Shown piece after piece: positions 1-51,299 of a stretch of 64,000 nt of DNA. The position numbers were made by a program, and so were the translations under genes. Under the pieces are notes generated by a model. That model was given only the letters and a program-made list of their open reading frames with translations, was not told where the DNA came from and searched no databases. Source of the stretch: Candidatus Falkowbacteria bacterium. Its GTDB lineage: Bacteria > Patescibacteriota > Patescibacteriia > UBA11705 > JACRDX01. The stretch lies in contig JAZDOE010000003.1 of NCBI GenBank assembly GCA_043798985.1, positions 7,917 to 71,916 on the forward strand. The letters are read 5' to 3'. Position 1 is the stretch's first letter; every line of letters begins with the position of its first letter.

Positions 1-130
1 GGGCTTGATCGCGATCAGATTAGATACGCAGAGCTTGATTGAGCTTTATTATAATGTTTATAATCCTGATATTTCCGCGAACCAGCGAATGACCGGAATT
101 GAGGAGCTAAAAATAGAGAATTAACCTTAA

Positions 131-268: not shown

Positions 269-269
269 T

Positions 270-2129
270 ATGGATATCAGTCAAATGCAACAATTAAAGG
301 ACAAAGCCGTTGCGCAGCAAACGCCAGCGCCAAAAGTTGATTCAACCACTGAACCAAAGTTAACGCCAGGGCAGGAAAAAGAACTTTTGGAGCAAGAAAA
401 AGTTTATCGGCATGGAGTAAGCACGATATTGGATTTGATCGCGCCATCAGCGTTTGAAGTGACGCCGTCGTTTGTCAAAATCGGCGGAAAATATTGCCGC
501 ACATTGTTTGTCATGACTTATCCGCGCTACATCAGCGTTGGCTGGTTCGCGCCGATTATTAATTACAACGCCATGCTGGATATTGGAATGTTTTTTTATC
601 CTTTGGAATCGCGGTTAGTGTTGGAGCAACTGAAAAAGAAAGTTGGCATTTTGCGCGCGCAGCTAACGATGGACGCGGAAAAGGGCGCGCCGCGCGATCC
701 AATGCGCGAGATAGCGTTGCAGGATATTGAAAAATTGCGCGACGACATTACGCAGGGCACGGAAAAGTTTTTTCAATTTTCATTGTATGTCACGTTTTAC
801 GCCAATTCCGAAGCAGCGCTTGATAAATTGACCGAAGACTTGGAAGCTGTTTTTGGATCGCGCGCGGTTTTTACGAAACGCGTGCTTTATCAGGCAGAGC
901 AGGGTTTTAATTCAACAATCCCGATTGGCAATGACGAGCTCATGATTTCTTCCAACTTGAATTCTTCGCCGATCGCGTCTTCTTTTCCGTTTATTTCAGC
1001 TGATTTAACGTCAGACGATGGCGTTCTTTACGGCGTTAATCGGCATAATAATAGTCTGATTATCTTTGATCGTTTTTCTTTGCAAAATGCCAATACCGTC
1101 GTGTTCGCGACTTCTGGCGCTGGTAAAAGCTATGCGATTAAACTTGAAGTTTTGCGGACAATGATGCTTGGCACGGATTTTCTTATTATTGATCCTGAGC
1201 GCGAATATAAAAATTTGTGCGATGCTGTTGGCGGAACTTATGTAAATATTTCGCTGAACTCTGAAACAAAAATAAATCCGTTTGATTTGCCGCGGGCTAT
1301 TGGTGAAGATACCAGCGCGGAGGATATTATTCGCAGCGCTGTCATTACCGTTAAGGGTTTGATTCGCTTGATGGTTGGCGCGATTACTTACGAAGAAGAT
1401 TCTATTTTGGATCAGGCATTACTTGCGACTTATGCGAAAAAAGATATTACGCCTGATGCTGATTTGTCAAAGATTGAGGCGCCATTGATGCAGGATTTTT
1501 ACGAAGTTTTGCAGGGAATGGCTGGTGGCGCGGCTTTGGCGCTACGGCTGAAAAAGTTTGTTGATGGAACATTCTCGGGCTTATTTAATTCGCCGACCAA
1601 TGTTGATGTTGAGAATCAGCTGGTGGCATTCAGCGTACGCGATTTGGAAGATGAGCTGCGACCCTTGGCAATTTATAATGTTGTAAATTACATTTGGAAT
1701 ATCGTGCGATCAAAAATGAAAAAACGTATTTTGGTCATTGATGAGGCGTGGTGGTTGCTGCAGCATGATGATTCCGCGAAATTTATTTTCGCGCTGGTGA
1801 AACGCTGTCGTAAATATTATTTGGGAGTGACAACGATTTCGCAGGATGTGAACGACTTTTTAACTTCTCCTTATGGCAAGGCGATCGTCACAAATTCTTC
1901 TTTGCAGATTTTATTAAAACAGTCGCCAGCCGCGATTGATTTGATACAAAAAACATTCATGCTTACCGAAGGCGAAAAATATTTATTGTTAGAATCTGGC
2001 GTTGGCGAAGGAATATTTTTTGCAGGACAAAAACGCGCGGCAATTCGCATTGTCGCGTCTCCGCAGGAAGATAAATTAATCACTTCTGATCCGCGACAAT
2101 TGCTGGCAATGGAAGAGGAAGAAAAATAA
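270..2129 (+). CDS. VirB4/TrbE-like conjugative transfer (type IV secretion) ATPase
   Basis: Walker A 'ATSGAGKSYAIK' and Walker B 'ILVIDEAWWLL' in a ~620-aa protein with VirB4/TraC-like architecture. The track ORF starts at 207 inside a repeat element; ATG at 270 chosen by analogy with the positions of the two other repeat copies. Confidence 0.7.
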   Translation: MDISQMQQLKDKAVAQQTPAPKVDSTTEPKLTPGQEKELLEQEKVYRHGVSTILDLIAPSAFEVTPSFVKIGGKYCRTLFVMTYPRYISVGWFAPIINYNAMLDIGMFFYPLESRLVLEQLKKKVGILRAQLTMDAEKGAPRDPMREIALQDIEKLRDDITQGTEKFFQFSLYVTFYANSEAALDKLTEDLEAVFGSRAVFTKRVLYQAEQGFNSTIPIGNDELMISSNLNSSPIASSFPFISADLTSDDGVLYGVNRHNNSLIIFDRFSLQNANTVVFATSGAGKSYAIKLEVLRTMMLGTDFLIIDPEREYKNLCDAVGGTYVNISLNSETKINPFDLPRAIGEDTSAEDIIRSAVITVKGLIRLMVGAITYEEDSILDQALLATYAKKDITPDADLSKIEAPLMQDFYEVLQGMAGGAALALRLKKFVDGTFSGLFNSPTNVDVENQLVAFSVRDLEDELRPLAIYNVVNYIWNIVRSKMKKRILVIDEAWWLLQHDDSAKFIFALVKRCRKYYLGVTTISQDVNDFLTSPYGKAIVTNSSLQILLKQSPAAIDLIQKTFMLTEGEKYLLLESGVGEGIFFAGQKRAAIRIVASPQEDKLITSDPRQLLAMEEEEK

Positions 2130-2130
2130 T

Positions 2131-2724
2131 ATGGAAAAAAAACAAAAAATTATCATTCTGCTCGTTGGTATTGTTGTGTTCGCGTTGATTATTGGTTGGA
2201 TTGTTTGGGATGTTTGGGGAAATAAAAATGAGATTTCAGCGCCAGCCGCGCAAGTAAAAGAAGCTGTGCTATTAACAACGCCATCCACGCAAACAACAAC
2301 GCCCGCGCAAGTTGTTATCGCGGATAAACAAGAGCAACAATCAATGCAAGCGCAGGTTTTGGCAAAAGTTTTCGCTGAAAAATTCGGCACTTTTTCCAAT
2401 CATGAAAATTATGCCAGTTTGGAAAAGTTGAAAAACATGATGACCACCAGTACGGCAAAGTGGTTTAATGATTATATTACTGATTTGAAGAAAAAATATG
2501 GCAATGAATTTGCGACATACTATGGCGTGACAACTACTGCTGTGAATGCTAATGTGCTTGAAGCGAGTGAAACCAAAATGATATTGCTTGTTGATTGTCA
2601 ACGCAAAGAATCAATGGGAATCGCGCCAATCATTGAGTATAATCAAAGTTTAAAATTGAACTTGGTAAAAATAAACAATGAATGGAAAATTGACGGCGTT
2701 TTTTGGCAAAATAAAGAAGCTTAG
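2131..2724 (+). CDS. hypothetical membrane protein (N-terminal TM), translationally coupled to the VirB4-like gene
   Basis: ORF; hydrophobic N-terminus 'IIILLVGIVVFALIIGWIVW'; start 1 nt after the VirB4-like gene stop. Confidence 0.4.
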   Translation: MEKKQKIIILLVGIVVFALIIGWIVWDVWGNKNEISAPAAQVKEAVLLTTPSTQTTTPAQVVIADKQEQQSMQAQVLAKVFAEKFGTFSNHENYASLEKLKNMMTTSTAKWFNDYITDLKKKYGNEFATYYGVTTTAVNANVLEASETKMILLVDCQRKESMGIAPIIEYNQSLKLNLVKINNEWKIDGVFWQNKEA

Positions 2725-3409
2725 CCTGAAAATCTGGGCGAGTTTGTTTCCCAAAGAATGTTTGGGTTGTGGCAAAGAAGATGTTTATTGTTGCGACCAG
2801 TGTGTAAGTAAAATGAAGATGAGCGCGCTAAATATTTGTTTTTTGTGTAATAAAAAGGCTACTGGGCTTGGAATATGTGAAGGTTGCGCTGAAATTTCAG
2901 GCGTGGACGCACTCATTGTTGCCACGAATTATAAAGACACATTGGCGGAAAAATTGATAAAGCATTTGAAATACGATTTTGTCGTGGAGTTGGTTCAACC
3001 GCTGGTCAGTTTGTTGAAACAAAAAATAGAGACAATGGAGGCGCGCCAGTTTTTTAGCGGAGCATTGTTAATTCCTGTTCCATTGCATCGTCGCCGTTTT
3101 TTATCACGAGGGTTTAATCAGTCGGAGATTATCGCGAAAGAATTGGTCAGCGCGTATGGCTGTGAGTTAAAAACAGACGTAGTAAAAAGAACAAAAGCAA
3201 CGAAAAAGCAATTTGGATTGTCGCGGGAAGCGAGGCAAAAAAATATTCAGGGAGCGTTTACCATTGTAAAACCAGAGTTGGTTAAAGGAAGAAAAATAAT
3301 TATAATTGATGATGTGCTGACAACAGGAGCCACGCTAAGCGAGCTGGCAAAAATTTTGAAAAAATGCGGGGCAATAAAAGTCGTTGGCGCGGCAATCGCG
3401 CATGAATAG
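2678..3409 (+). CDS. comFC: ComF-family phosphoribosyltransferase (competence protein ComFC-like)
   Basis: N-terminal CxxC...CxxC zinc finger plus C-terminal PRTase motif 'IIIIDDVLTTGATL'. Confidence 0.65.
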   Translation: MNGKLTAFFGKIKKLSLKIWASLFPKECLGCGKEDVYCCDQCVSKMKMSALNICFLCNKKATGLGICEGCAEISGVDALIVATNYKDTLAEKLIKHLKYDFVVELVQPLVSLLKQKIETMEARQFFSGALLIPVPLHRRRFLSRGFNQSEIIAKELVSAYGCELKTDVVKRTKATKKQFGLSREARQKNIQGAFTIVKPELVKGRKIIIIDDVLTTGATLSELAKILKKCGAIKVVGAAIAHE

Positions 3410-3424
3410 TTTAATTTTTAGAAT

Positions 3425-4483
3425 ATGAAAATACTGTTTGCGGGAGGAGGCACGATGGGGTCAGTAAGCCCGTTGCTGGCAGTATCGGAAAAATTAAAAA
3501 AAGAATTTCCTGATTGCGAAATGCTGTGGCTTGGCACGAAACATGGTCCGGAAAAAATGGTTGTGGAAAAAATCGGCATTATTTTCCGTCCGATTTGTTC
3601 AGGAAAGCTACGCAGATATTTTAGCTTGCTCAATTTCGTTGATCCATTTAAAATTTTTGTTGGTTTTTGCCAGTCAATCGGCGCGATTATAAAATTTAAA
3701 CCGGATATTATTTTAACCGCTGGCAGTTTTGTTGCCGTGCCAGTAGTTTGGGCCGGTTGGTTGTTGCGAAAAAAAATAATCGCGCATCAGCAGGATATTT
3801 TGGTGGGGCTGGCCAATAAATTGATTTTTCCGGCGGCAGCGCGCGTGACGGTAAGTTTTGAGGATTTGTTAAAAGTTTGCCCAATGGATAAAGGTATTTT
3901 TACTGGAAATCCAGTTCGTTCGTTTTTATCAAAGGCAAACAAGGATAAAGCAATTGAAACATTTAAATTGGAAAAAGGCGCGCCAGTTCTGTTAATTTTA
4001 GGCGGCGGAACTGGCGCGCGATCAATAAATGATTTTTTTGTAAAAATCAGCGACAGATTAACCGAGTTTTGCCAGATAATTCATGTTTGCGGAGTTGGAA
4101 AATTGGTTGAAGCTGAAAAAAATAATCGTTATCATCCAGTAGAATTTTTAACTGACGGATTGGCAGACGCTTATGCTGCGGCAGATTTGGTGATTACTCG
4201 CGCAGGACTTTCAACTTTGACAGAGCTGGCCTATTTGGCAAAGCCGACAATTATTGTCCCAATTCCTGATGGTCATCAGGAAAATAACGCGGCTTATTTT
4301 TCAAAATTGAACGCGGCGATTTATTGGAAACAAAAGGAGCTGGATGAAAATAAAGCGCTCGCGCAAGTTAAAAGTTTGTTAAACAACAGAGAAGAATTAG
4401 GACGATTATCAAATAATATAAAAGGTTTTGCCGTGGCTGACGCCGCGGATAGGTTTGTTAATGTTGTGAAAGATTTATTGTAA
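3425..4483 (+). CDS. murG: UDP-N-acetylglucosamine--N-acetylmuramyl-(pentapeptide) pyrophosphoryl-undecaprenol GlcNAc transferase
   Basis: 'MKILFAGGGTMGSVSPLLAV' N-terminus, GT28 architecture, 352 aa. Confidence 0.85.
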   Translation: MKILFAGGGTMGSVSPLLAVSEKLKKEFPDCEMLWLGTKHGPEKMVVEKIGIIFRPICSGKLRRYFSLLNFVDPFKIFVGFCQSIGAIIKFKPDIILTAGSFVAVPVVWAGWLLRKKIIAHQQDILVGLANKLIFPAAARVTVSFEDLLKVCPMDKGIFTGNPVRSFLSKANKDKAIETFKLEKGAPVLLILGGGTGARSINDFFVKISDRLTEFCQIIHVCGVGKLVEAEKNNRYHPVEFLTDGLADAYAAADLVITRAGLSTLTELAYLAKPTIIVPIPDGHQENNAAYFSKLNAAIYWKQKELDENKALAQVKSLLNNREELGRLSNNIKGFAVADAADRFVNVVKDLL

Positions 4484-4499
4484 AAATATTTATCGCGAT

Positions 4500-5168
4500 A
4501 TGCGCTTGCTGGACAAAATAAAATTGAGCGAAGGCGAAAAAGTTTTGCATGTCGTGAAACATTGGTTTGGGCTTTTGTTGCCGCATTTTGTTTTTTGTTT
4601 TTTGATAATTATTTTTGATTTTTTCCTGATGTATTATTTATTTTTGCAGGGATTGTGGGGCGTGATCGCGTTTGCCGCGATTTTGATAATCGCGATTGCG
4701 TACACAGGCAGACTGATTTTTTTGTGGAAACGCAACATAATGGTTTTGACGAACAAACGAATCATTGATTGGGAACAGCTTGGATTTTTTGAACAAACGA
4801 TTCAGGAATTATCATACGCGGACATTGAAAATGTTGAGGCTGGTCACAAAGGTTTGCTTGGAAAAATGTTCAAATTCGGAAATTTATCTTTTAAAATTAA
4901 AAATGAAGAATATCCGTTTGTTTTGTATAAGGTGAAATTTCCAGTGCGCGCCGCAGAAGCGGCGCGAAGACTTATGTCAGCGCCAACTGTCATCCTGAGC
5001 TTGTCGAAGGAGACAGTTCCAGCGGGGAAACCAGATTCGGTTGATTCGTTGTTGGAGCAAGCTAAGAAAATGTCATTGTCAGACAAAAAGAATTTTTATA
5101 AAGAGTTTAAAAAAATATTGCGGGCTGATTTGGAGGTGGCTATAAACAAACGCGTGGATGAAAGTTAA
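4500..5168 (+). CDS. hypothetical membrane protein (two N-terminal TM helices; possible bacterial PH-like domain)
   Basis: ORF, hydrophobic segments; no confident family assignment. Confidence 0.3.
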   Translation: MRLLDKIKLSEGEKVLHVVKHWFGLLLPHFVFCFLIIIFDFFLMYYLFLQGLWGVIAFAAILIIAIAYTGRLIFLWKRNIMVLTNKRIIDWEQLGFFEQTIQELSYADIENVEAGHKGLLGKMFKFGNLSFKIKNEEYPFVLYKVKFPVRAAEAARRLMSAPTVILSLSKETVPAGKPDSVDSLLEQAKKMSLSDKKNFYKEFKKILRADLEVAINKRVDES

Positions 5169-5186
5169 GCGCATTGTTATGATGTT

Positions 5187-5597
5187 ATGACAAAAAGATT
5201 GTCAAAACGCAACGCAATATTTTTAAAATGGCAGTTTTTTGTTTTGTTGGCCGTTATTGTTTTGTTGCTGATCGCGTGTGCTAGACAATTTTTCAATTAT
5301 CAAGATTTGTTGACGCGCGTTTCTGACGCAAAAAATGAAATTTCAAAATTGGAAATGAATAAAATTGCGCTCGCCGTAAAAATAGAACAATACGCGAGCG
5401 CGGAATTTTTGGAAGCAGAGGCGCGAAATAAACTGAATTTGAAAAAAAAGGGAGAAACTGTGGTTGTGATAAAAAACATTCCGGGCGCGGTGTTGCCAAT
5501 AGACACTGTTGGCGCGGATGATGAAACGGGCGACAAGGTCGCTGAAAAACAGAAAACTAATTTGGCGCTTTGGTGGAAATATTTTTTTGATAATTAA
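5187..5597 (+). CDS. FtsB/DivIC-like septum formation initiator (TM plus coiled coil)
   Basis: Single TM then coiled-coil 'EISKLEMNKIALAVKIEQYAS', size 136 aa; division-gene neighbourhood (murG, ftsEX). Confidence 0.4.
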   Translation: MTKRLSKRNAIFLKWQFFVLLAVIVLLLIACARQFFNYQDLLTRVSDAKNEISKLEMNKIALAVKIEQYASAEFLEAEARNKLNLKKKGETVVVIKNIPGAVLPIDTVGADDETGDKVAEKQKTNLALWWKYFFDN

Positions 5598-7598: not shown

Positions 7599-8275
7599 TT
7601 CGTTTCCGCAATGTGACGAAGCATTATGATCCGAACGTTTACGCGTTGAGGGATTTTAGTTTGCATATAAAACCGCAGGATTTTGTGAGTATCGTCGGAA
7701 AGAGTGGCGCTGGCAAGACAACTTTGATTAAATTGCTGACAGCCGAGGAGCGGCCAACCAAAGGAAAAATTATTGTGGGCGGCTGGGATATTACTGATAT
7801 CAATCACCGCGAAATTCCATTTTTGCGGCGACAAATTGGCGTTATTTTTCAGAATTTCAGGCTTTTGCCAAATCGCACGGCATTTGAGAATATCGCGTTT
7901 GCTCTGCAGGTTTGCGGCGCTGCGCCGCAGAAGGTCGCGAAAATTGTTCCGCAAATTTTAAAAATCGTTGGACTTGGTCATAAACAAAATTTTTATCCAC
8001 ACCAACTTTCAGGCGGTGAGCAACAGCGCGTTGGTATAGCGCGCGCGTTAATACATCGCCCGAAAATTTTGTTGGCAGACGAGCCGACCGGCAATCTGGA
8101 TGCTATCAATGAGCAGGAAATTATTAATTTGTTGAAAAAAATAAATGAACTCGGAACAACTGTAATTTTGGTGACGCATAATAAAGGAATTGTTAATTCT
8201 TTACGCAAACGAGTAATTACAATGGATTCTGGCGAATTGATCAATGATCAGCATCATGGGAAATACATCATATAA
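7595..8275 (+). CDS. ftsE: cell division ATP-binding protein FtsE
   Basis: ABC ATPase: Walker A 'GKSGAGKTT', signature 'LSGGEQQRV', Walker B 'ILLADEPT'; followed by ftsX. Confidence 0.9.
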
Positions 8276-8306
8276 ATTTTCAGTTTTCAATTTTTAATTT
8301 TCAAGT

Positions 8307-17085: not shown

Positions 17086-18501
17086 TTATTTTATCGCGAC
17101 TGGACAATTTCCTCCTGGTTCCGCTTGGAACAAATTTGTCACTCCATATTTGTCCATTATTCTTTCTTTTCCTGCTTTGCGAACCGAGGCTGCTTTGCCT
17201 TTGCCATATTGGAGTCCTCCTATCGCTGCTTCCTGCAACGTCTTATAATAGCCTCCTGTCCAGTCGCTTGGTTGATAACCACCGTCTTTTGGAGTGCAAA
17301 CAGTTTTTCCTATATCAAACGCCTTTTCTTTGCAACGTTTTATAATTAGGGTCTGCCATGACAGCGCGAGTCCATTTTCAATATTTTCTCCGCCCTGGCA
17401 TCCCCCTTTATTTAAGGTGCTTGTTAGGTTGTCTATCCCGCTGTTATGATAAAGGTAAAGCAACGTTGCCATATCAGGATCAGATAAATTTTTTGTGCCG
17501 GCGCAATTGCTTTCTATTATTTTTTTTGCACTTAATATTGCCTTAGTTATGCCAGCAGTTTGTAAATTAACATCAAAAAGTCTAGGATCGTTTTCAACAA
17601 GCTCGCCGGTAGCCAAGCCCAATTCTGAAAAATAATAATTCATTTTTTTCACGTCTTTCTCCCCCCCCAAAGTTCCTTCTATGGATGATTTTTTAAATTG
17701 GAACAATCCTCCAAAACAAGAGCAGTTGACTACGTATGGTTGAAAGCTGGATTCGTAGTCAGCGATCCCCATTAATATTTTCCAGTTGAAATTTCCGCAA
17801 GCGGCGAAATTTCTGAATGTCTGTTCAAAGTTTCCCGGAGGAATGGAAGTGCTGTTTGTTTGTATTCCGCAATGTTTTAAAACAGATTCGTGACCAGCTC
17901 CGCAAGTGCCGTCAGAATTTGCCGCTTCATCTTTGCCGAATAAAATATCGTCCATTGTCACTCTTTTTACTAATTCCATGTTGAAGGATTTTAGTTTTGT
18001 AAGTTCTGGATTTATAAAGTATAAAATAAGATATGCCGATAGAAGAATGATTAAGCCGCTGATGCTGCCAAGAATAGTTTTTTTGCTTTTTTCAACCCAA
18101 GATTTATTAAGACCGCTTAGCATGTAGAAAAACCCGCCGATAATCAGCAAAAGAGTGGCAAAAACCGCGCCGATAATTAGGGCATATTTATAAATCGCAA
18201 GCAGATATTCAGCGATCCACGGAATATCAATTGATTGTGGCTCGCCTTGGTCGTTTTTAGTTATTGTTGCGTTTGAAAACTGGGGGAGCGTTGGACTTGG
18301 TATATTTAACTTTGGAGATTGTGGAGCGCCTGCGTTTTCGCCTTCTGATGCGATTATTTTTGCAAAATTCGGAAGCGTTGGGATCGGTATATTTAACTTT
18401 GGTCCTTCTATGATTTCTGTGCTAGTTGTTTGGGCAAATGCAAATAACGGAAAGAGCATTAGTATTAAGTTAAGTAGTAAAAATAATTTACGCATAACCA
18501 T
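17086..18501 (-). CDS. lytic transglycosylase (SLT domain) fused to a VirB2-like N-terminal membrane module
   Basis: SLT catalytic region 'ILMGIADYESSFQPYVV...GLFQF'. The N-terminal ~170 aa (signal peptide, IPIPTLP repeats, two TM helices) are paralogous to the N-terminus of the 18963-20237 product. Confidence 0.6.
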   Translation of the reverse strand: MVMRKLFLLLNLILMLFPLFAFAQTTSTEIIEGPKLNIPIPTLPNFAKIIASEGENAGAPQSPKLNIPSPTLPQFSNATITKNDQGEPQSIDIPWIAEYLLAIYKYALIIGAVFATLLLIIGGFFYMLSGLNKSWVEKSKKTILGSISGLIILLSAYLILYFINPELTKLKSFNMELVKRVTMDDILFGKDEAANSDGTCGAGHESVLKHCGIQTNSTSIPPGNFEQTFRNFAACGNFNWKILMGIADYESSFQPYVVNCSCFGGLFQFKKSSIEGTLGGEKDVKKMNYYFSELGLATGELVENDPRLFDVNLQTAGITKAILSAKKIIESNCAGTKNLSDPDMATLLYLYHNSGIDNLTSTLNKGGCQGGENIENGLALSWQTLIIKRCKEKAFDIGKTVCTPKDGGYQPSDWTGGYYKTLQEAAIGGLQYGKGKAASVRKAGKERIMDKYGVTNLFQAEPGGNCPVAIK

Positions 18502-23299: not shown

Positions 23300-23427
23300 A
23301 AATTCGAAGCGCGAAGTTCGAAATACGAAACAAGTTCGAAACACGAATTTCCCAATGTTTGAAACGTTCTGATTTCGAATTTGGAATTTGTTTAGGATTT
23401 AGGATTTCGAATTTCGTATTTATAAGT
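23300..23427. repeat. AT-rich conserved leader module, copy B
   Basis: acacgaatttcccaatgtttgaaacgttctgatttcgaatttggaatttgtttaggatttaggatttcgaatttcgtatttataag, ending 3 nt before the ATG. Confidence 0.7.
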
Positions 23428-28594: not shown

Positions 28595-28667
28595 ATAAGT
28601 ATAATGTCAAATATCAAATTTCAAATATCAAATCAATGTCAAAATTTTAATTTCAAATGTCAAAATA

Positions 28668-29027
28668 TTATTTTTGTTTTGTTATTGCGGAAAATATTAA
28701 TGTTAATTCATGCGCTTCCTGCCAAAGCTTTCTGCCCGCATCTTTGTTTGTGGGATTTTCTATTGCGATAATATGCAGCCAATACATCGTTTCCTTAGAT
28801 TCTTTTTTGCAGATGCCGAGTTTGTGATAGAAATCTTTTTTGGATTCTGCCCCGTCTGCTTCGGCGTAATTCGCGCCAATGCTCGTTGCCGATCGGATCA
28901 ATTGTTTTGTCATAATTTCATTGGCCGCAGTCTTTACGAGGTTTTTAACAAAATTAATGACATCGCAGCTAAACGCAGTTGTGCGCGAAGCAAGATTATA
29001 TTTTGGTTTGAGCTCAGTATTTGTCAT
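28668..29027 (-). CDS. four-helix-bundle protein (23S rRNA intervening-sequence protein family)
   Basis: 'LIRSATSIGANYAEADGAESKKDFYHKLGICKKESKETMYWLHII' family signature; flanked by inverted 'ttcaaatatcaaat' repeats (28595-28667 and 29028-29072). Confidence 0.8.
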   Translation of the reverse strand: MTNTELKPKYNLASRTTAFSCDVINFVKNLVKTAANEIMTKQLIRSATSIGANYAEADGAESKKDFYHKLGICKKESKETMYWLHIIAIENPTNKDAGRKLWQEAHELTLIFSAITKQK

Positions 29028-29072
29028 TTGAACTTTGGATTTGATTTGGCATTTGATATTTGAACTTTGAAA

Positions 29073-30053
29073 TTATTGCACGAGGTTTCCATTTACATCA
29101 ACATTAATAATATTTTTCGGGCTGGTGTTTGTTAAAATGCTGATAATTTTTCCATCTTGATTCCATGTTGGCGACTTGCCAAAAGAAATTCGCTGGCTGC
29201 GCAAGATTGAATTTAAATCTGCCGCAAATTCTAATAACCAAATTTCATTGTCCGATTCAAAAATTAGATATTTGCCATTTGGCGACCAGCTAGGTTGCTC
29301 GGTTGGTATTGGCACAGTAGTGTTTGTCACGAATTTTTGGCCAAGGTTTGTTAATTGTTTGCGGTTATTGCTGGTTGTATCAACTATAAAGAACGAAGCA
29401 AGCCCTTCTGGGCTCAAAGAATTAAAAATAATTTTTGTTGCTTTGGGAGAAAAAATCGGCGCAAAGTCTTCAGGGCTGTTTGTTATTTGTCGCTCTTTGT
29501 TGGTTGTAAGGTTAAAAATGAAAATGCCGCGGCTGTTTTCAAAATAATCATTTGATTGCCAATTGTCAGCAAGCTTTTGATACGTTAAAAATTTCTCGTC
29601 AGCGGAAATTGTTGGCGACATTACTTTGTCCGCGATCGTGGCAATGTTTGCGCCATCAAAACTCATGCTGAACAATTTTGCTTCATTTGTTAAATAAAAT
29701 ATTTTTTGCGAACGTAAGGCGATGAGGGCGTCAATAACATTTTTGTCGTTGATAAGTTGTTTGTGAATTGTTGCCTGTTTGTTTATTAACCAAAGATCTC
29801 CACTGCCGATGGCTTCGCTTGCCGTAAGTTGTTCTTTGATTGTTTCCGCGTAGACCGCAAAATCGTCCTGTTGATCATAAAGGCGCGCGGCAATATTTGC
29901 CGCGACTGTTTGCTGATTATCCGCGTTGATTAACATTAGAGAGTTGTTTGCGAGAGAAAAAAGCGCGGCGGCAGACTGTTTGGGCGTAATAAAAAATTGA
30001 ACCGCGAGAATAATGGCGACCGCAAGAAGCAGGGGAAGTAAGATTTTGCGCAT
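29073..30053 (-). CDS. PD40/TolB-like beta-propeller periplasmic protein
   Basis: 'QPSWSPNGKYLIFESDNEIWLLEF' PD40-like repeats, N-terminal TM/signal. Confidence 0.45.
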   Translation of the reverse strand: MRKILLPLLLAVAIILAVQFFITPKQSAAALFSLANNSLMLINADNQQTVAANIAARLYDQQDDFAVYAETIKEQLTASEAIGSGDLWLINKQATIHKQLINDKNVIDALIALRSQKIFYLTNEAKLFSMSFDGANIATIADKVMSPTISADEKFLTYQKLADNWQSNDYFENSRGIFIFNLTTNKERQITNSPEDFAPIFSPKATKIIFNSLSPEGLASFFIVDTTSNNRKQLTNLGQKFVTNTTVPIPTEQPSWSPNGKYLIFESDNEIWLLEFAADLNSILRSQRISFGKSPTWNQDGKIISILTNTSPKNIINVDVNGNLVQ

Positions 30054-30143
30054 AAGGGCGTGGATAATTTTTAATTTTCCCCAAAGGGGTCCCTTCGGGA
30101 TAATTTTTAATTTTAAATGAATTTTTAAATTCTAATATCTAAC

Positions 30144-30494
30144 TTAGAATTTTTTTTGTTCGTTCGTTGTGGCAGTTCTGACTATTTTACTGAATATTAG
30201 CGTTAACTCTTGTGCCTCTTGCCATAATCGGCGCAATGCTTCTTTTTCTTGAGGATAGTACTCTGCAATCATGCGGAGCCAATGTTTCGTTTCCTGCGTT
30301 TCTTTTTTTGCGATGTATATTTTGTTTTTGAAATCTTTTTTCGAACTTGCCCCATTGGCTTCCATATAATTTGCACCGATGCTAGTTGCTGCGCGTATAA
30401 GTTGGATGATCAAAGGTTTAGACAACGGGGAAAGCGCTAGTCGTTTTGAAAACTTAATTATCGCAATGCCAAAATTGGCAGTACGCTCTTCCAA
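30144..30494 (-). CDS. four-helix-bundle protein (23S rRNA IVS protein family), second copy
   Basis: 'LIRAATSIGANYMEANGASSKKDFKNKIYIAKKETQETKHWLRMI'. Confidence 0.75.
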   Translation of the reverse strand: MEERTANFGIAIIKFSKRLALSPLSKPLIIQLIRAATSIGANYMEANGASSKKDFKNKIYIAKKETQETKHWLRMIAEYYPQEKEALRRLWQEAQELTLIFSKIVRTATTNEQKKF

Positions 30495-30640
30495 ATCATA
30501 AATTTTGGTGGTGGTCAGCTCGCGGTCAAGGTGCGGTTTAATTCAAGCATATATCAGGACTCGCCCTATAATTAAATTGAGGGTTGTGGATAAAAGACCC
30601 CTACGAGTTTCATTCATGTCCAATTTGTTGTATACTAACA

Positions 30641-31354
30641 ATGACGTGTATGCCAAAAACAAAAATCAAAAAGAAAATTGAAAATCCCGCATTGGTTGAC
30701 GAAGTGAATTTTGCAAAAGCAGAAGTGAGCTATTTTAAAGGCTTGAGTATTTTTTTGGTGTGCCTATTGGTTTTAATTTTCTTTTCATTCAGTTCTTTGT
30801 TCGCGTTGATGTATTTGGAAACGCGATATATCAGCATTCAGGTTGATGAAGCTGTGACAAGTTTGAAAAGCACAACTGTTGGAAATTGCAGCTGCGATTT
30901 GTGTGAACAAAAGGCCTCGGCTGAAAGTTCGGCGACGCAGGTTGAACAACCATCTGCGGCGATTGATTTTTCCAAATGGATGAATTTTGACAAATATGGT
31001 TTTGAAATTTGGTTTCCAAACACTTGGTCATATCTGGATTTGCCAAACCAAAAGCAGGTGCATTTGTTTGTTGATGGCGTGGTGCGCGAAGAATTGAATG
31101 GCGAGTGGGGTGATGTTGTTGTGTCATTGGCGAGCAAGGATAATTATAAGGATAAATTCGCAAAAGAGGTGATTGATATTGGCGGAACTTATGGGTTTAA
31201 TTATGCGGTGAAAAAGGGGACAAGTGAAAGCGAGGTGATCATCGTCCCCGTTGCAAAAGGTTTTGTTGAGCTGCATATTTATAAGATTCAAAATGGAAAA
31301 ACCATAATTTCGCAGGATATTGTTAGCGCTTTGGTTAGTAAGTTTAGCTTGTAG
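30641..31354 (+). CDS. hypothetical membrane-anchored protein
   Basis: ORF; TM 'LSIFLVCLLVLIFFSFSSLFALMYL'; start uncertain (30641 or 30649). Confidence 0.3.
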   Translation: MTCMPKTKIKKKIENPALVDEVNFAKAEVSYFKGLSIFLVCLLVLIFFSFSSLFALMYLETRYISIQVDEAVTSLKSTTVGNCSCDLCEQKASAESSATQVEQPSAAIDFSKWMNFDKYGFEIWFPNTWSYLDLPNQKQVHLFVDGVVREELNGEWGDVVVSLASKDNYKDKFAKEVIDIGGTYGFNYAVKKGTSESEVIIVPVAKGFVELHIYKIQNGKTIISQDIVSALVSKFSL

Positions 31355-31545
31355 GCGAGTAGCAGAGTAGCTTGTAGGAAGTTAGGAAAAAGAGTCCAAA
31401 GTTTACTATATCCTGTCTTATTTTAGCTAAGTTTCTTGGGCGCGATTGACTTCGCGCTTTTTATGTGCTATAATGATTTGTTCTTTGATTTAAGGTCATA
31501 GACAACTGGCTGGGAAAATCCCCTGCCCTTTTCAAGGAGGAAGTT

Positions 31546-32303: not shown

Positions 32304-33104
32304 ATGGTCGTGATTTATTATATTATTGTTTTTGTTTTCGGATTGTGCGTGGGTAGTTTTTTGAATGTTGTAATTGAGCGCACTTTGCGCGACGAATCAA
32401 TTGTTTTTCGCGCGTCACATTGCCTGATGTGTGATAAAAAAATCAAGTGGTATGACCTTTGTCCATTGATAAGCTATTTATTCTTAAGATGCAAATGCCG
32501 GCAGTGCGGCGCGAAAATTTCTTTACAATATCCATTGGTTGAATTATTCACCGGACTTTTTGCAATGCTGTGCGTTTATGGATATCTTGGTTCATTTTCA
32601 ACGTTATTGAACAACGAAGTTTTTTGGCTGCTGAATTTTTTCATTTGCTGTGTGTTAGTGGTTATTTTCACGTCAGATATTCGCTATTATCTAATTCTTG
32701 ATGAAGTAATGATTCCCGGAATTTTTTTCGTGTTTTTTGTCAAATTGTGGCTGGGCTATGAAAACAACATATTGTTGCACGAATTAAAATATTTGTTGGT
32801 TTCCGGCGCGATCGGATTCTTGTTCTTTGGCGTGCAATATTGGTTGTCCAGCGGAAAATGGATTGGCGGAGGTGACATGCGCTTGGGCGCGTTCATGGGC
32901 GTGGCATTGGGCTGGCAAAAATTGCTGGCAGCTTTGGCAATCGGCTATATTATCGGCGCGATTGTGGCAGTAATATTGTTGCTAAAAAAACAGACGTCGT
33001 GGAAAAGCAAATTGCCGCTGGGCGTTTTTTTGTCATCAAGCTCAATAATCGCACTGTTTTGGGGAGAGAAAATTATTGAATGGTATTTGACAATATTGAA
33101 ATAA
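32304..33104 (+). CDS. pilD: prepilin peptidase (A24 family, PilD-like)
   Basis: 'GLCVGSFLNVVIERT', zinc-binding CxxC...CxxC, multiple TM helices, 'GGGDMRLGAFMG' with catalytic D. Confidence 0.85.
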   Translation: MVVIYYIIVFVFGLCVGSFLNVVIERTLRDESIVFRASHCLMCDKKIKWYDLCPLISYLFLRCKCRQCGAKISLQYPLVELFTGLFAMLCVYGYLGSFSTLLNNEVFWLLNFFICCVLVVIFTSDIRYYLILDEVMIPGIFFVFFVKLWLGYENNILLHELKYLLVSGAIGFLFFGVQYWLSSGKWIGGGDMRLGAFMGVALGWQKLLAALAIGYIIGAIVAVILLLKKQTSWKSKLPLGVFLSSSSIIALFWGEKIIEWYLTILK

Positions 33105-33223
33105 TTTTGAATTTCGAATTTTTAATTTTGAATCAAGGTTTAATGTCTGAATGTTTGAATGTTTCAAAATTCAGATTTTAAAATTCAATCAAAATTCGAG
33201 CTTCAAAATTCAAAATTTTAACT
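33104..33223. repeat. AT-rich palindromic upstream module (pilin-type copy D) with ctgaatgtttgaatgtttcaaaattcag
   Basis: Related copies at 34384-34463 and 35040-35153, each directly 5' of a pilin gene. Confidence 0.65.
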
Positions 33224-33727
33224 ATGTCTCGTGGATTTACAATTATTGAATTGTTGGTTTCAATGGCGATTATTGTTGTATTAACAACAATGGTGACGAT
33301 CGCGTTTGGTTATAATCAACAACATAAAGTGTTGGTCGCGAATGGCCAGGGTTTTTTGAATGTTTTGAAAGAAACGCAAACAAAAGCCTTGTCAGGCATT
33401 AAAGATCCTGCCACAAAAATTATGCCGGCTGGCGGATATGGAGTGCGCATTAACGCGACTCAATATTTTGTGTTCGCGGATAGCAATTCTAACGCGAAGC
33501 TGGACATTGGCGAAACATTGGCGACTGGTAATCTTGAAAAAAACATTCAGTTCAAAGTTCCGCAAAGCGACATTGTTTTTTTGCCATACAAAACAATTGA
33601 TTCGGTTTGTTGGAATACTGTGTGCGCTGATGCTGTTGTCAAGATTATTTCACTTGAACAAACGCAGACAAAAGAAACATATTCAATTTATTTGGATCAA
33701 AAAATCGGAAAAATTTGGGCGGAATAG
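33224..33727 (+). CDS. type IV pilin (prepilin-type N-terminal cleavage/methylation domain)
   Basis: 'MSRGFTIIELLVSMAIIVVL' class III signal. Confidence 0.75.
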   Translation: MSRGFTIIELLVSMAIIVVLTTMVTIAFGYNQQHKVLVANGQGFLNVLKETQTKALSGIKDPATKIMPAGGYGVRINATQYFVFADSNSNAKLDIGETLATGNLEKNIQFKVPQSDIVFLPYKTIDSVCWNTVCADAVVKIISLEQTQTKETYSIYLDQKIGKIWAE

Positions 33728-33798
33728 GTCTGTTGCGAAGGGATTCCTCACCCTTTTCAAGGGTTCGGAATGACATGCACAGCGATTCATGCGTAATT

Positions 33799-34383
33799 AT
33801 GAATAATCAAAAAGGCCAGACAATTATTGAGGCAGTTGTGGCAATCGCAGTGATCAGCTTGGCGATGCTGGGCTTTTTGTCGCAGGCAACGAGCAATTTT
33901 GTGATGGGCCGAACGAGTGAAAATCATTTTATCGCGTATAATTTGGCGAGCGAGGCGATTGAAGTAAGCCGAAACGTGCGCGATTCAAATTGGCTAAAAG
34001 GTTGTATTGATCCGGCTGTTCCTGCGAAATGTTTTTTGTGGAATAGCGGGCTGGCAAATGGTACTGATTATTCGGCTGTGTTGAATTTTAACGCAACAAC
34101 CGGCAATTGGTTATTGGATTTCTCGCCAAAAGATTTAGCAACGTGCGGAGGGGCGTGTTTGGCTGGCGACAAAACAAAATTTTCGCGCATGGTTTTTTTA
34201 CAACCTGTTTGCAAAGACAAATTTGATTGCCTTGCCGATGGCGGGGTAAACGGGATTTGCGGTGATGGAGAAAAGTGCGCTGGCGAGCAAATTGGAATTA
34301 AAGTGACAGCACAAGTTGGCTGGAGCGAGGCAAGCGGGCTGAAAACGTACGAAGCAACGGAATATTTGTATAATTGGAAGTAG
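33799..34383 (+). CDS. pilin-like / pseudopilin protein
   Basis: 'MNNQKGQTIIEAVVAIAVISLAML' prepilin-like N-terminus. Track ORF 33715 begins inside a repeat element; start trimmed to 33799 (in frame). Confidence 0.55.
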   Translation: MNNQKGQTIIEAVVAIAVISLAMLGFLSQATSNFVMGRTSENHFIAYNLASEAIEVSRNVRDSNWLKGCIDPAVPAKCFLWNSGLANGTDYSAVLNFNATTGNWLLDFSPKDLATCGGACLAGDKTKFSRMVFLQPVCKDKFDCLADGGVNGICGDGEKCAGEQIGIKVTAQVGWSEASGLKTYEATEYLYNWK

Positions 34384-34463
34384 AAAATTTTGAATTTCTA
34401 ATTTTGAATTTTGATTGAATGTTGAATGATTGAATGTTTTAAAATTCGAAATTGACAATAGGT

Positions 34464-35039
34464 ATGGTTGACTCAACGGGACAGCGTGGGTTTTCTTTAA
34501 TAGAATTGCTCGTGGCAATGGCGGTTTTTTTGACTGTTTTGTTGGTTGCCACTGATATTTTTGTTTCTGTTTCTCGGCGCGAGCAACAAACACTTATACA
34601 ACAGCGAGCGCTGAACGAGTTGCGCTATGACCTTTACTTTTTAACGCAACAAGCAAAAATCAATCAGATAAATTATGAAATGTATCCGGAAAAGTTAAAC
34701 ATTGTTGAAACACAATTGTTTTTGCAGGATAAAAATGAAAAAGTGATAATTTTCAAATTATCTGACCAAAGTTGCGTTGCCGGCGTGAAAAAATGTTTGC
34801 TTTATTTTAAGGAGGGCGTTGGCTGGAAAACTTTGTCGTCAACCGCAGTTGATTTTGATTTTATGAAATTTTACATAACGCCAAATAAAAATCCGTTTGA
34901 TTTGGACAAGACGACTGGAAAGTACGCGGCAGATGATCAGCCGAAGGTGACAATTGTTGCGCAGGCGTTTGCGCCGGGCCAGCCGGACAGAAAAATAAAT
35001 TTACAGACAACCATAAGCGGGAGGATATATGGGAGATAA
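34464..35039 (+). CDS. type IV pilin-like protein
   Basis: 'QRGFSLIELLVAMAVFLTVLLVA' class III signal. Confidence 0.65.
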   Translation: MVDSTGQRGFSLIELLVAMAVFLTVLLVATDIFVSVSRREQQTLIQQRALNELRYDLYFLTQQAKINQINYEMYPEKLNIVETQLFLQDKNEKVIIFKLSDQSCVAGVKKCLLYFKEGVGWKTLSSTAVDFDFMKFYITPNKNPFDLDKTTGKYAADDQPKVTIVAQAFAPGQPDRKINLQTTISGRIYGR

Positions 35040-35153
35040 ATTTTGAATTTTGAATTTCGAATTTTGAATCAAATCTGAATGTTTTAATTTTGAAACATTC
35101 AATCATTCAACATTCAATCAAAATTCAAAATTCTAATTTCAAAATTATTTAAT

Positions 35154-35894
35154 ATGTCTGATCAGCAAGGAAATGTCTTGGTTTATACAGTGCTCGCGGT
35201 CGCGGCAATCTTGAGTACTATTTTGATTGTGTCAAATTTGATGATTGGCGAAATTCGGCAAGCTGGAAATTTTGACAACATGATTAAAGCAACGTACGCG
35301 GCTGAAAGCGGGGCAGAATGGGGAATTTTTAATTTGCGCAAAAATAATATTATGATTGAGAGCGATTGCGACATGCCAGACGTTGATTGTTATGCTGGAG
35401 TAGATGAAACTGGCGTGAAAAAATTGCAATCTGATTTGCCGCAAAACCAGACATTGCAAATTGATTTGTATAATCCGATAAAATTGAACAAGGCTTCTGG
35501 CGTTGAGTCAATGAAAATTGGTTGGTTGGGCGCTGGCTGGGTTGAAGTGACATTGGTTGAATGGCAGGCCGGCAGCCAGGTTGTTTGGAATGACAATGCA
35601 ATGCAAAAATTTTTGTTTAACGCGCCGGCCGTTTTAAATGTTTTTAATAAAAGTAAAAATTATATTGTCCGATTAAAATCTTTAAACGCGCCATTGGCCG
35701 CGTTGTCCGTTGAAATTTTTTCTGGTGACAACGCGGCGGGCGCAGCCCTGCCGTTCCCTCAATTTGTGCGTGTGACTGCCGAGGGAACGGCCAATGGCGC
35801 GTCGCAAATTATCAATGTTGATTTGCCGAAAAAATCCCCGCTCATGGGTTTATTTGATTACGCGTTGTTTAGCGAGGAGGATATTATAAAGTAG
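35154..35894 (+). CDS. pilus-associated hypothetical protein (PilX-like N-terminal helix)
   Basis: Hydrophobic N-terminus 'VLVYTVLAVAAILSTILIV'; follows the pilins. Confidence 0.35.
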   Translation: MSDQQGNVLVYTVLAVAAILSTILIVSNLMIGEIRQAGNFDNMIKATYAAESGAEWGIFNLRKNNIMIESDCDMPDVDCYAGVDETGVKKLQSDLPQNQTLQIDLYNPIKLNKASGVESMKIGWLGAGWVEVTLVEWQAGSQVVWNDNAMQKFLFNAPAVLNVFNKSKNYIVRLKSLNAPLAALSVEIFSGDNAAGAALPFPQFVRVTAEGTANGASQIINVDLPKKSPLMGLFDYALFSEEDIIK

Positions 35895-35928
35895 CTTGTA
35901 GCTGGTAGCTTGTAGCAGGGTAGGTTTT

Positions 35929-38350
<2,422 letters not shown>

Positions 38351-42417: not shown

Positions 42418-42536
42418 CGCTTGAGTATTCCGTCGTTGTTAAAAACAGCGGCGGATTTTTTGTTTTACAATAATTATCAAGCGTGAGATGATAAAAAAAG
42501 CAAGAGTAGCTGGTAGCTTGTAGATGTAAGAGAAAT

Positions 42537-49707: not shown

Positions 49708-50137
49708 TTGGGAGTTTCAAACAACTGATGTTGTAATCGCGATGGTTGTCATTGTCGCGGGATTTTTGCTTTATTTTTGGTTGCGCAAAATAAGCAGGCC
49801 AGAATTGGTTGGTATATCGCAAAAGGAAATTCAACGTCGTTGGAATGAGATTTGTGGCATGGTAAAAGTTAGAAAGGAAATGAATTATAAATTGGCAGTG
49901 ATTGAGGCGGACAAATTGCTGGATCATATTTTGAAGGCAATGAATTTTCAGGGTGACACAATGGGCGATCGGTTAAAATTGGCAATATACAGGTTTCCAA
50001 AGTTGCGCAAAGTCGTTTGGGCGCATCGCGTACGCAATCAAATTGTTCATGAAGTGAATTATAGTTTGCGGTATGGCGTGGCGCGATTGTTGTTGAAGTT
50101 ATACAAGAATGCGTTGAAACATTTGCGAGTGTTGTAG
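49679..50137 (+). CDS. hypothetical protein (N-terminal TM)
   Basis: ORF only; stop codon lies inside a gtagcttgtagc repeat. Confidence 0.3.
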   Translation: MSGKTVMSINWEFQTTDVVIAMVVIVAGFLLYFWLRKISRPELVGISQKEIQRRWNEICGMVKVRKEMNYKLAVIEADKLLDHILKAMNFQGDTMGDRLKLAIYRFPKLRKVVWAHRVRNQIVHEVNYSLRYGVARLLLKLYKNALKHLRVL

Positions 50138-50163
50138 CTTGTAGCTGGTAGCAGGGTAGCTTA

Positions 50164-50713: not shown

Positions 50714-51247
50714 ATGAAAATTTTGTTGCATGTTTGTTGTGCTGTTTGCGGCGGCGCGGTAATTGAAAAATTAAAACAAGATGACAATAAAGTCATTGCG
50801 TTTTTTTATAATCCCAATATTTTTCCGGAGGAAGAATATATGCGCCGCCGCGACGAGGCCGCGCGAATTTGTAAAGAAATGGGAATTGAATTTATTGAAG
50901 GTGAATACGATTATAAAAGTTGGTTGAGCAAGGTTAAAGATTATGCTGGAGAAAAAGAAGGCGGAAAGCGATGTGAAATTTGTTTTGCGATCAGATTGAG
51001 CGAGGCCAGCCAAAAAGCAAAAGAACTTGATTGCGATGCGATTGCCACTACATTAACAATAAGTCCGCATAAAAACGCGGAAGTTGTGAATAGAGTCGGA
51101 AAAGAATGTTCTGAAATTTATGGATTGAAATTTATTGATACTATTTGGCGAAAAGGCGGAGGATTCAAACGGGCGTGCGAAATTGCCAAAGAACAAAATG
51201 TTTATCATCAGCATTATTGCGGCTGCGAATATAGCGTCGGCTACTAA
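50714..51247 (+). CDS. queH: epoxyqueuosine reductase QueH (DUF208)
   Basis: 'MKILLHVCCAVCGG' N-terminal Cys cluster and conserved C-terminal 'HYCGCEYS'. Confidence 0.75.
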   Translation: MKILLHVCCAVCGGAVIEKLKQDDNKVIAFFYNPNIFPEEEYMRRRDEAARICKEMGIEFIEGEYDYKSWLSKVKDYAGEKEGGKRCEICFAIRLSEASQKAKELDCDAIATTLTISPHKNAEVVNRVGKECSEIYGLKFIDTIWRKGGGFKRACEIAKEQNVYHQHYCGCEYSVGY

Positions 51248-51299
51248 TTACTAATCACTACGAATTGTTACCAATTACGAATATACGAATAAAAAAATA

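Follow-up and report, generated by a model that had tools for sequence, protein, structure and literature searches.

A probable mobile-type 22-bp double-hairpin insert in repeat-rich spacers of a Candidatus Falkowbacteria chromosome segment

Two intergenic spacers of a Candidatus Falkowbacteria chromosome carry a 22-bp GC-rich double hairpin that is probably a non-coding, mobile-type (selfish or neutral) mini-insert, added exactly and without target duplication to repeat-rich spacers by a mechanism that we infer. The reading is supported by a gain at an orthologous site, by an exact difference of 22 bp, by maintained pairing within the element, by its many unrelated contexts in other genomes, and by an enrichment of GIY-YIG nuclease genes beside it there. 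The window, i.e., the whole 64-kb stretch of DNA that was analysed, is all of this genome that was seen. It is a bacterial chromosome segment (Candidatus Falkowbacteria, CPR/Patescibacteria) of about 42% GC with housekeeping genes; a 326-aa protein encoded beside the element shares 100% identity with one from a Candidatus Falkowbacteria metagenome-assembled genome. The window ORFs scanned against Pfam and a local GIY-YIG profile all fall among housekeeping, pilus or type IV secretion-like genes, and no transposase, GIY-YIG nuclease, integrase or Nop-domain protein was found among them (Pfam, local HMM).

The window holds two copies of the element only. Copy 1, CCCCAAAGGGGTCCCTTCGGGA, is flanked by two exact copies of GGATAATTTTTAATTTT, and copy 2, CCCCAAAGGGGCCCCTTCGGGG, interrupts a GTAGCTT-type array, a different array, 31 kb away (Table 1). 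Both copies lie between co-oriented genes, 15–25 nt before a start codon and 19–44 nt after a stop codon; from copy 2 it is 15 nt to the folD ATG downstream. Two sites in the window match the 21-nt pattern, where 100 shuffles predict 0.00, and no third copy within three mismatches occurs in the 64 kb. The sequence-only reading had placed a GC-rich element with its flanking repeats at 30061–30115, and re-reading of the sequence confirms it, as follows: g at 30063, ataatttttaatttt at 30064–30078, ccccaaaggggtcccttcggg at 30079–30099 and ataatttttaatttt again at 30100–30114. It had described a 15-bp duplication flanking a 21-nt insert. The repeat is real. Because the element's last 3 nt also belong to the second repeat copy, the exact repeat is 17 nt, with a spacing of 36. 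The element proper is 22 nt. The right repeat is part of an AT-rich array of ~7–8-nt units that continues to 30135. The second copy does split a gtagcttg-type repeat, as had been claimed (gagtagcttg, the element, then tagcagggtagcttgtagg), at 61568–61589 rather than at 61569–61590. The uninterrupted arrays said to be at 50133 and 35890 are present as well, each one base further on. With the element deleted, the copy 2 array reads GTAGCTTGTAGCAGGGTAGCTTGTAGG and resembles these intact arrays, which is the outcome of the comparison that the same reading had proposed for reconstructing the empty site. Arrays of 7-nt units are common in the window.

Table 1. The two element copies, their flanking sequences and neighbouring genes, and uninterrupted arrays in the 64-kb window.
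Feature	Position	Strand	Description
PD40-repeat gene	29073–30053	minus	
Copy 1 spacer, 90 nt	30053–30144	both genes minus	from the stop of the four-helix-bundle gene (30144) to the start of the PD40 gene (30053)
Left 17-nt direct repeat	30062–30078		GGATAATTTTTAATTTT; the 15-nt repeat of the sequence-only reading is 30064–30078; by alignment, its counterpart already exists in L119
Element copy 1, 22 nt	30079–30100		CCCCAAAGGGG + TCCCTTCGGGA, two hairpins (4-bp stem, 3-nt loop); limits based on outer-pair covariation and the exact 22-column gap against the relative L119
Right 17-nt direct repeat	30098–30114		GGATAATTTTTAATTTT; begins with GGA, the final 3 nt of copy 1
Four-helix-bundle gene	30144–30494	minus	23S-rRNA-IVS-type
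Uninterrupted GTAGCTT array	35891–35923	plus	model of the empty copy 2 site
Uninterrupted GTAGCTT array	50134–50161	plus	GTAGCTTGTAGCTGGTAGCAGGGTAGCTTA
folD	60732–61553	minus	
Copy 2 spacer, 55 nt	61553–61609	both genes minus	from the glyA stop (61609) to the folD start (61553)
Copy 2 left flank	61553–61567		TAGGAGAGTAGCTTG; one half of the GTAGCTT-type array; repeats the right flank directly at 13/15 positions
Element copy 2, 22 nt	61568–61589		CCCCAAAGGGG + CCCCTTCGGGG
Copy 2 right flank	61590–61608		TAGCAGGGTAGCTTGTAGG; other half of the GTAGCTT-type array
glyA	61609–62835	minus	

Relatives were found by protein search, the closest in the collections searched being GCA_016212745.1 (PD40 protein 80% and FolD 76% identical). 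Its gene order is the same as that of the window at both spacers, and the element is present at neither. When the copy 1 spacer is aligned by MAFFT with its counterpart in this genome (L119), there is a single 22-column gap exactly opposite TCCCGAAGGGACCCCTTTGGGG, and from the gap to the ATG the two spacers are colinear and ungapped. Both of the supposedly duplicated 14–15-mers align ungapped to the empty site, AAAATTAAAAATTA followed directly by AAAATTTTAAATTA, with 12 of 14 positions alike. The length difference is 22 nt, whereas an insertion accompanied by a 15-bp duplication would give 36–37 nt. Since there is a single 22-column gap and both flanks exist in L119, copy 1 is best described as a precise 22-bp addition to an existing AT-rich tandem repeat, although two taxa, with one relative, do not fix whether the element was gained here or lost there. 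The target-site duplication that had been suggested for copy 1 does not stand, since both repeat units are found in the empty site and the lengths differ by 22 nt rather than 37; the 15–17-nt repeat belongs to the AT-rich tandem repeat of the spacer itself. The fallback that had been offered, an ordinary AT-rich tandem repeat that has nothing to do with insertion, is correct for the repeat and wrong for the GC-rich element.

At copy 2, the glyA–folD spacer of the closest relative (L122) contains a shorter array, cctacaagctaacagctaactcct, without the element, and that of a more distant relative (L123) is 6 nt long and has neither array nor element. This points to a gain of copy 2 rather than a loss, and comparison of the three sequences suggests a likely order of states from spacer, to array, to array plus element. 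The length difference between copy 2 and L122 is 31 nt (22 + 9), which is neither 22 nor 37. No element within four mismatches was found in ~35 kb of relatives' sequence, and a search of metagenomes for strain-level filled and empty alleles at copy 1 gave 0 matches. With the element absent from the closest relative at both spacers and carried by at least 118 stretches elsewhere, the idea of a very small inserted element is upheld.

The consensus element, CCCCAAAGGGG-CCCCTTCGGGG, is a quasi-palindrome, and each of its strands forms two adjacent 4-bp G:C mini-hairpins. Each half has a 4-bp G:C stem and a 3-nt loop (AAA in one, TTC in the other), the alternative being a 3-bp stem with a cTTCGg loop. 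The earlier description of two tetraloop-like hairpins is roughly right. Because whole-spacer folding energies are no better than those of shuffles, the structural support is covariation across copies, not energy. Covariation was assessed in an ungapped alignment of 127 copies (the two of the window and 125 others), in which the base after hairpin 1 is complementary to the base after the search pattern. Counted on the 114 distinct rows, the outer pair of hairpin 1 is CG in 81, UA in 16, AU in 10, GC in 1 and UG in 0, with 6 unpaired; the outer pair of hairpin 2 is CG in 73, UA in 28, AU in 8, GC in 2 and UG in 2, with 1 unpaired. The observed covariation was reached by 0 of 500 shuffles. Positions −1 and +1 are paired in 43% of rows only and form no maintained pair. 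The search pattern left the outer positions unconstrained; their pairing is therefore an observation and not an artefact of the pattern, and since the outer pairs covary, the unit is 22 nt, i.e., two 4-bp G:C stems with 3-nt loops.

Among the matches listed, the loop combination AAA+TTC (equivalent to GAA+TTT on the other strand) outnumbers both fully symmetric versions. Extra copies in the same loci, found with a relaxed pattern, have loops one substitution from the consensus, and G–C outer pairs, as stable as C–G, are almost absent (1–2 of 114). The asymmetric loops, the single-step variants and the scarcity of G–C pairs favour descent from one sequence with decay over convergence. Hairpins as simple and as stable as these could be partly of convergent origin.

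The family was surveyed with the pattern CCCCRAAGGGGNCCCTTYGGG in one genome per species from 185,579 species. At least 118 stretches matched, holding 125 distinct sites with unrelated flanks, where about 4 matches would be expected by chance (our own arithmetic, with equal base frequencies). The further copies for which the sequence-only reading had proposed a search are thus present in the genome collection. Since the sample of at least 118 stretches was chosen by an exact pattern, the copy numbers, taxonomic shares and loop frequencies drawn from it are biased. By the labels in the record titles of these loci, and among the matches listed, ~59 loci, about half, belong to CPR lineages (Saccharibacteria, Peribacteria, Berkelbacteria, Uhrbacteria, Doudnabacteria, Paceibacterota, Kazan, Abawacabacteria, Microgenomates and others), ~23 to Bacteroidota or Ignavibacteria and ~11 to Proteobacteria; ~17 are unclassified and ~8 carry other labels. 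Some genomes have several copies on multiple contigs, with at least 10 loci in CAYWRA01 and at least 9 in DAIPLH01. A phage origin was considered and rejected, as 0 of 2.9 million viral contigs matched.

Among the matches listed, the element lies in spacers, in 5′ fragments of tRNA genes and in one gene for a CCA-adding enzyme. The partial 5′ tRNA gene copies that carry it are located 50–350 nt upstream of an intact tRNA (L001, L026, L049, L053/L033, L023, L028, L020, L032, L081 and L102). In homologous 5′ fragments of the tRNA-Ser type, the element is found after GTCG, after GTCGCA or after GTCGCATAG; because these are three different positions in homologous fragments, the insertions are taken to be separate events. 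In the tRNA fragments the flanks rejoin as continuous tRNA sequence, with nothing duplicated, and at L063 a tRNA-Val is called only once the 22 nt are deleted. At L115 the element is in frame in the CCA-adding enzyme and adds eight residues, NPEGAPSG, between the conserved LLGRER and KDIDF, the point at which the alignment to solved CCA-adding enzymes breaks. One orthologous copy, upstream of tRNA-Pro, is kept in two species (L033/L053).

Small GIY-YIG nuclease ORFs occur within 700 nt of the element at 16 loci or more. Their density, among the matches listed, is 0.114/kb within 700 nt and 0.005/kb farther away in the same loci, a difference of ~25-fold; the association is statistical and comes from the loci of other genomes, not from the window. 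The element is 12–45 nt upstream of the GIY-YIG start codons. GIY-YIG proteins are encoded beside it at, e.g., 5589–5885 of L102 and 1079–1360 of L023. An exact 46-nt repeat, consisting of a tRNA-Ser 5′ fragment plus the element, stands on both sides of a GIY-YIG gene at L102, and L072 has a tandem pair of elements with a 36-nt period. An association with four-helix-bundle genes was also considered and rejected (two near vs. three far).

The arrangement at copy 1 resembles what a miniature transposon would leave, namely a 15-nt staggered cut by a transposase, joining of the 21–22-nt element, and duplication of the target by gap filling. Exact repeats of 15–17 nt abut copy 1, a 13/15 repeat abuts copy 2, and across the family 17 of 125 sites have flanks that agree in at least 11 of 15 positions (13.6%, against 3.2% for random non-coding adjacent 15-mers, p = 5e-6), examples being L105 with 14/15 and L111 with 13/15. 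Similar flanks being enriched about 4-fold, the element may prefer short tandem repeats or may occasionally duplicate a flank; this excess would not be expected if the element always entered random spacers without any duplication. What counts against the transposon is that the empty site in L119 already has both units and differs by 22 nt rather than 37, that the 31-nt difference at copy 2 fits neither expectation, that tRNA flanks rejoin without duplicated bases, and that ~86% of copies, among the matches listed, are without flank similarity. Nor are exact flank repeats longer at the 125 copies than at random positions, none exceeding 8 nt, as in the controls. The 125 other copies, which were to be inspected for flanking duplications, thus show no exact duplication beyond the level of random positions and no consistent duplication length, and an exact target-site duplication was rejected family-wide, its length distribution being that of random positions. 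Regular target-site duplication is excluded, and we consider the miniature transposon quite unlikely. Other properties of the site were tried and rejected, as follows: insertion at the tips of larger hairpins, since the flanks are no more complementary than controls; a conserved target motif, since 86 oriented copies show no more than a weak preference for G at −1 (63%) and for C at +1 (47%); and a specific link to 7/8-nt tandem arrays, which is weak (11.5% vs. 6.8% in non-coding controls). That there is no element at all, only tandem duplication or slippage in a low-complexity AT-rich spacer around a GC stretch that arose by chance, is highly improbable. The spacer does consist of ~7–8-nt AT-rich units, such arrays being frequent in the window, and unit plus hairpin do repeat at a 36-nt spacing; this explanation is refuted by the recurrence of the 21-nt GC sequence, both within another array at a distance of 31 kb and in at least 118 other stretches, and by a relative that has the AT-rich array without the GC stretch.

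A different proposal is that the host selects the element as a structural signal, e.g., to stabilise the 3′ or 5′ end of an RNA, to mark a site of processing, to act as an unusual terminator or to bind a protein as a palindrome, and that lineages have converged on the most stable mini-hairpins. Such a role would suit the compensatory changes that maintain pairing, the position of the window copies between co-oriented genes near start and stop codons, the 12–45-nt distance to GIY-YIG start codons elsewhere, the ratio of convergent to divergent spacers (14 to 7, with 44 tandem, all near background) and the copy kept upstream of tRNA-Pro in two species. We nevertheless find it doubtful, given that the nearest relative lacks the element at both orthologous spacers and that copies are found inside protein-coding sequence and broken tRNA copies. 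Orientation relative to transcription shows no bias (17 vs. 14), and neither does orientation relative to GC skew (32 vs. 20, p = 0.13); in the absence of such biases, a DNA-level parasite fits better than a strand-specific RNA signal. A U-tract in gene orientation is absent at both copies, although ordinary hairpin-plus-T-run terminators are present in this genome, and an intrinsic terminator was rejected because copy 1 is terminator-like only on the plus strand, antisense to both genes, and copy 2 gave no match. Among Rfam families only tRNAs reached the gathering threshold and the element was unmatched, the best permissive matches having E of 0.1 or worse, far below gathering scores. Convergence on stability would also not account for the near absence of G–C outer pairs, which equal C–G in stability, or for variant loops that are single-step neighbours of the consensus and not other stable loops. 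The 36-nt spacing at copy 1 and the 36-nt-period tandem pair at L072 further recall guide-RNA arrays, whether CRISPR-like or of the TIGR type. In TIGR-Tas systems, 36-nt units that combine box C/D-like repeats with two spacers stand in tandem beside the gene for a Nop-domain Tas protein, and TIGR arrays, processed to 36-nt units, are known in parasitic bacteria (PMC12045711). A fragment of such an array was rejected and has a vanishingly small probability: copy 1 has one full unit only and no box C/D-like motifs, no Nop-domain or Tas-like protein was found among the window ORFs scanned, the copies are dispersed and not arrayed, and the hairpin is conserved while the flanks repeat, the reverse of spacer logic.

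We return to the duplication-free mini-insert. As its most likely route, we suggest that the element would be copied in at the DNA level during break repair or fork stalling, with another copy as the template. Structure-specific nucleases might promote the copying, and the GIY-YIG proteins that adjoin the element elsewhere are of this kind. Alternatively, a single-strand transposase that recognises hairpins could act in trans. Where an inserted element is transcribed, its hairpins may have incidental effects on the ends of mRNAs. No observation calls for a host function, and protection of RNA ends or a similar use, although possible as a secondary effect, has little support in the data.

The element is not a member of the GC-cluster, double-hairpin or REP/REPIN families, and would work like them by analogy only; its closest parallels appear to be mitochondrial GC clusters and the double-hairpin or repetitive hairpin-forming elements. 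The GC clusters of yeast mitochondria (e.g., GC42) are short GC-rich hairpins in AT-rich DNA, mostly intergenic and in some cases within genes (PMC4478555). They are non-coding, their presence varies between relatives, copies merge, and interspecies exchange occurs; their mover is not known, and intron-encoded or free-standing endonucleases are suspected (PMC4478555). Like the element, they are GC-rich hairpins dispersed in AT-richer DNA and sporadic between relatives, and yeast clusters and the element have a common CCTTCGGGG core. In contrast, GC clusters are organellar and usually longer (about 18–50+ nt) and have been reported with short AG/ACT-type target duplications (PMC4478555), whereas the element has a fixed length of 22 nt, resides in bacterial chromosomes, is added without duplication and has one sequence across phyla. 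The double-hairpin elements of Allomyces and other fungal mitochondrial DNAs, and the repetitive hairpin-forming elements of sponge mitochondrial DNA, are considered potentially mobile, lie in spacers, beside tRNA genes and in variable parts of genes, and stay in transcripts (PMC2800124). The fungal double-hairpin elements match the element in two-hairpin architecture and in location in spacers, near tRNA genes and inside genes. They differ in being mitochondrial, lineage-specific in sequence and of other sizes, and no homology is claimed. Double-hairpin elements of Allomyces reportedly stand at the borders of inserted endonuclease ORFs accompanied by partial gene duplication, an arrangement that resembles that of the element with GIY-YIG genes and tRNA fragments.

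Among bacterial repeats, REP and REPIN sequences are 20–40-nt imperfect palindromes, extragenic and multi-copy, without target duplication (PMC3733652, PMC3337134), and the element is like them in being a short, imperfect, extragenic, multi-copy palindrome inserted without duplication. REPs carry a GTAG or CGTC tag, are species-specific, often form inverted doublets and flank a RAYT gene (PMC3733652). The element, in contrast, has no tetranucleotide tag in 86 oriented copies, forms no doublets and has one sequence across phyla; no RAYT (Y1 transposase) gene was found in the part of the ORFs of these 64 kb of genome that was scanned against Pfam. Rickettsia palindromic elements are longer, about 100–150 bp, and restricted to Rickettsia, and differ in both respects from the 22-nt element. 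IS200/IS605-type elements and their miniature derivatives share hairpins at both ends and the lack of target duplication. They need a conserved 4–5-nt target on one side and TnpA and show strand bias, whereas the element has no target motif and no strand bias, and no TnpA was found among the window ORFs scanned. IS-derived MITEs have terminal inverted repeats, a fixed-length duplication and typically 50–500 bp, unlike the 22-nt element with no consistent duplication. No earlier description of this sequence or of palindromic repeats of CPR was found in the literature searched, and the element is apparently a hitherto undescribed repeat.

It is tempting to go further, and we put forward as a tentative possibility that the 22-bp double hairpin is truly mobile, is common to CPR phyla and some Bacteroidota and Ignavibacteria, would be the smallest dispersed mobile-type bacterial repeat known and the counterpart in bacteria of mitochondrial GC clusters, and is copied precisely, without target duplication, into spacers, tRNA genes and coding sequences via a structure-specific nuclease pathway with the adjoining GIY-YIG proteins. 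If so, streamlined, ultra-small, uncultured bacteria would carry 22-bp parasitic DNA that is near letter-for-letter the same across phyla. One would then ask which enzyme recognises two 4-bp hairpins, how the element crosses phyla, and what allows genes for tRNAs and proteins to tolerate its presence. It would also offer a bacterial system for studying how GC clusters and double-hairpin elements move, a long-unsolved problem, and, in CPR genomes, a marker of recent insertions and of the borders of gene cassettes with GIY-YIG and four-helix-bundle genes. For annotation, there is a warning that inserts of 22–24 nt can break tRNA detection and add eight residues to proteins. In the window, the GTAGCTT array at 35891–35923 and an inverted array at 36282–36315 bracket a four-helix-bundle gene.

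Across several CPR phyla, the 22-nt element recurs within the same order of features, in which the 5′ part of a tRNA gene, bearing the element, is followed by an intact tRNA. A small GIY-YIG nuclease ORF lies between the element-bearing fragment and the intact tRNA in the element-containing stretches L023, L026, L028, L020, L032, L081, and L102; among the matches listed, the fragment–element arrangement itself is found in these loci and in L001, L049, and L053/L033. In several loci, the tRNA-like 5′ sequence GGAG(R)GGTCGCATAG encodes the final codons of the GIY-YIG ORF (GGVA or GEVA, plus the stop). A GIY-YIG gene, together with ‘gattgcttc...ctcgcaatgac’ palindromes, also adjoins the CCA-adding enzyme gene of locus L115 (5993-7051). 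This gene carries the 22-nt element and two more in-frame hairpin-like inserts, one being LPRRSSEEAKAG and the other a 14-residue stretch, PTSAFSGLRTASLA, that is absent in solved homologs.

The element also occurs in multiple copies. In L089, from an Ignavibacteriae MAG, six copies are found at 81-5454, each embedded in a larger conserved repeat with GTTAGGC at its end, and they are spaced 0.8-1.4 kb apart. The series resembles a gene-cassette array, but no GCCTAAC partner matching the repeat end was seen, so it is at most a candidate integron. In L072 (7195-7255), a tandem pair of elements is separated by cttaccgcttaccg, giving a 36-nt period, which is the spacing of the repeat flanking window copy 1. 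Among the matches listed, many lie near a contig or locus end, most within about 200 nt and up to about 550 nt from it (L002, L003, L005, L016, L018, L024, L041, L065, L074, L085, L087, L089, and L091). The element and its flanking sequence may be repetitive, or else the hairpin may reduce coverage and fragment short-read assemblies.

The window holds other repeats (see table). Tandem arrays with a 7-nt period occur in many spacers, and some form inverted pairs enclosing one whole gene; similar arrays are present in other CPR and Bacteroidota loci that carry the element. The GTAGCTT-type arrays are a separate dispersed repeat family, all in spacers adjoining gene ends. The closest available relative, GCA_016212745.1, has a shorter array of this type in the same glyA-folD spacer (L122).

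Features of the window and of related loci.
Feature	Locus	Positions	Strand	Remark
TraG-like P-loop ATPase and type IV secretion pilin-like protein	window	207-2129 and 17086-18501
Type IV pilus gene cluster	window	32304-35894
4HB gene 1 (PF05635)	window	28668-29027	-	23S-rRNA-IVS type
4HB gene 2 (PF05635)	window	30144-30494	-	23S-rRNA-IVS type
4HB gene 3 (PF05635)	window	35929-36282	+	23S-rRNA-IVS type
Inverted ~7-nt arrays, 4HB gene 1	window	28601-28658 / 29019-29076
Inverted ~7-nt arrays, 4HB gene 3	window	35891-35923 / 36282-36315
Inverted 7-nt array pair	window	34386-34438 + 35094-35146		encloses pilin-like gene 34452-35039
7-nt-period arrays, examples	window	220-262, 4586-4623, 8275-8304, 23372-23422, 33103-33217, 34386-34438, 35039-35146, 51242-51260
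GTAGCTT-type arrays	window	31344-31378, 35891-35923, 36282-36315(-), 42506-42524, 50134-50161, 61553-61608
tRNA fragment/element/GIY-YIG	L023	1020-1470
tRNA fragment/element/GIY-YIG	L102	5420-5900
tRNA fragment/element/GIY-YIG	L026	5710-6130

Three four-helix-bundle (4HB) genes are present in the window, and two of the three have inverted arrays of ~7-nt repeats on both sides. Since the 60%-identical relative (L120) lacks both of the 4HB copies that adjoin the PD40 gene, these two copies behave like inserted gene cassettes. In the closest available relative (L119), the ortholog of 4HB gene 2 has an ATG, ~9 initial codons and, upstream of them, an AT-rich array that are all missing from the window gene (window 30480-30545 versus L119 2350-2440); 4HB gene 2 may be a decaying copy.

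The spacer that stands in place of the 4HB cassette in L120 (1160-1290) is full of palindromic repeats of the ‘gtcattgcgag...ctcgcaatgac’ type, which include one single CCCCAACGGGG hairpin. The same repeat type is host to the 22-nt element in L010, L012, L014, L029, and L043.
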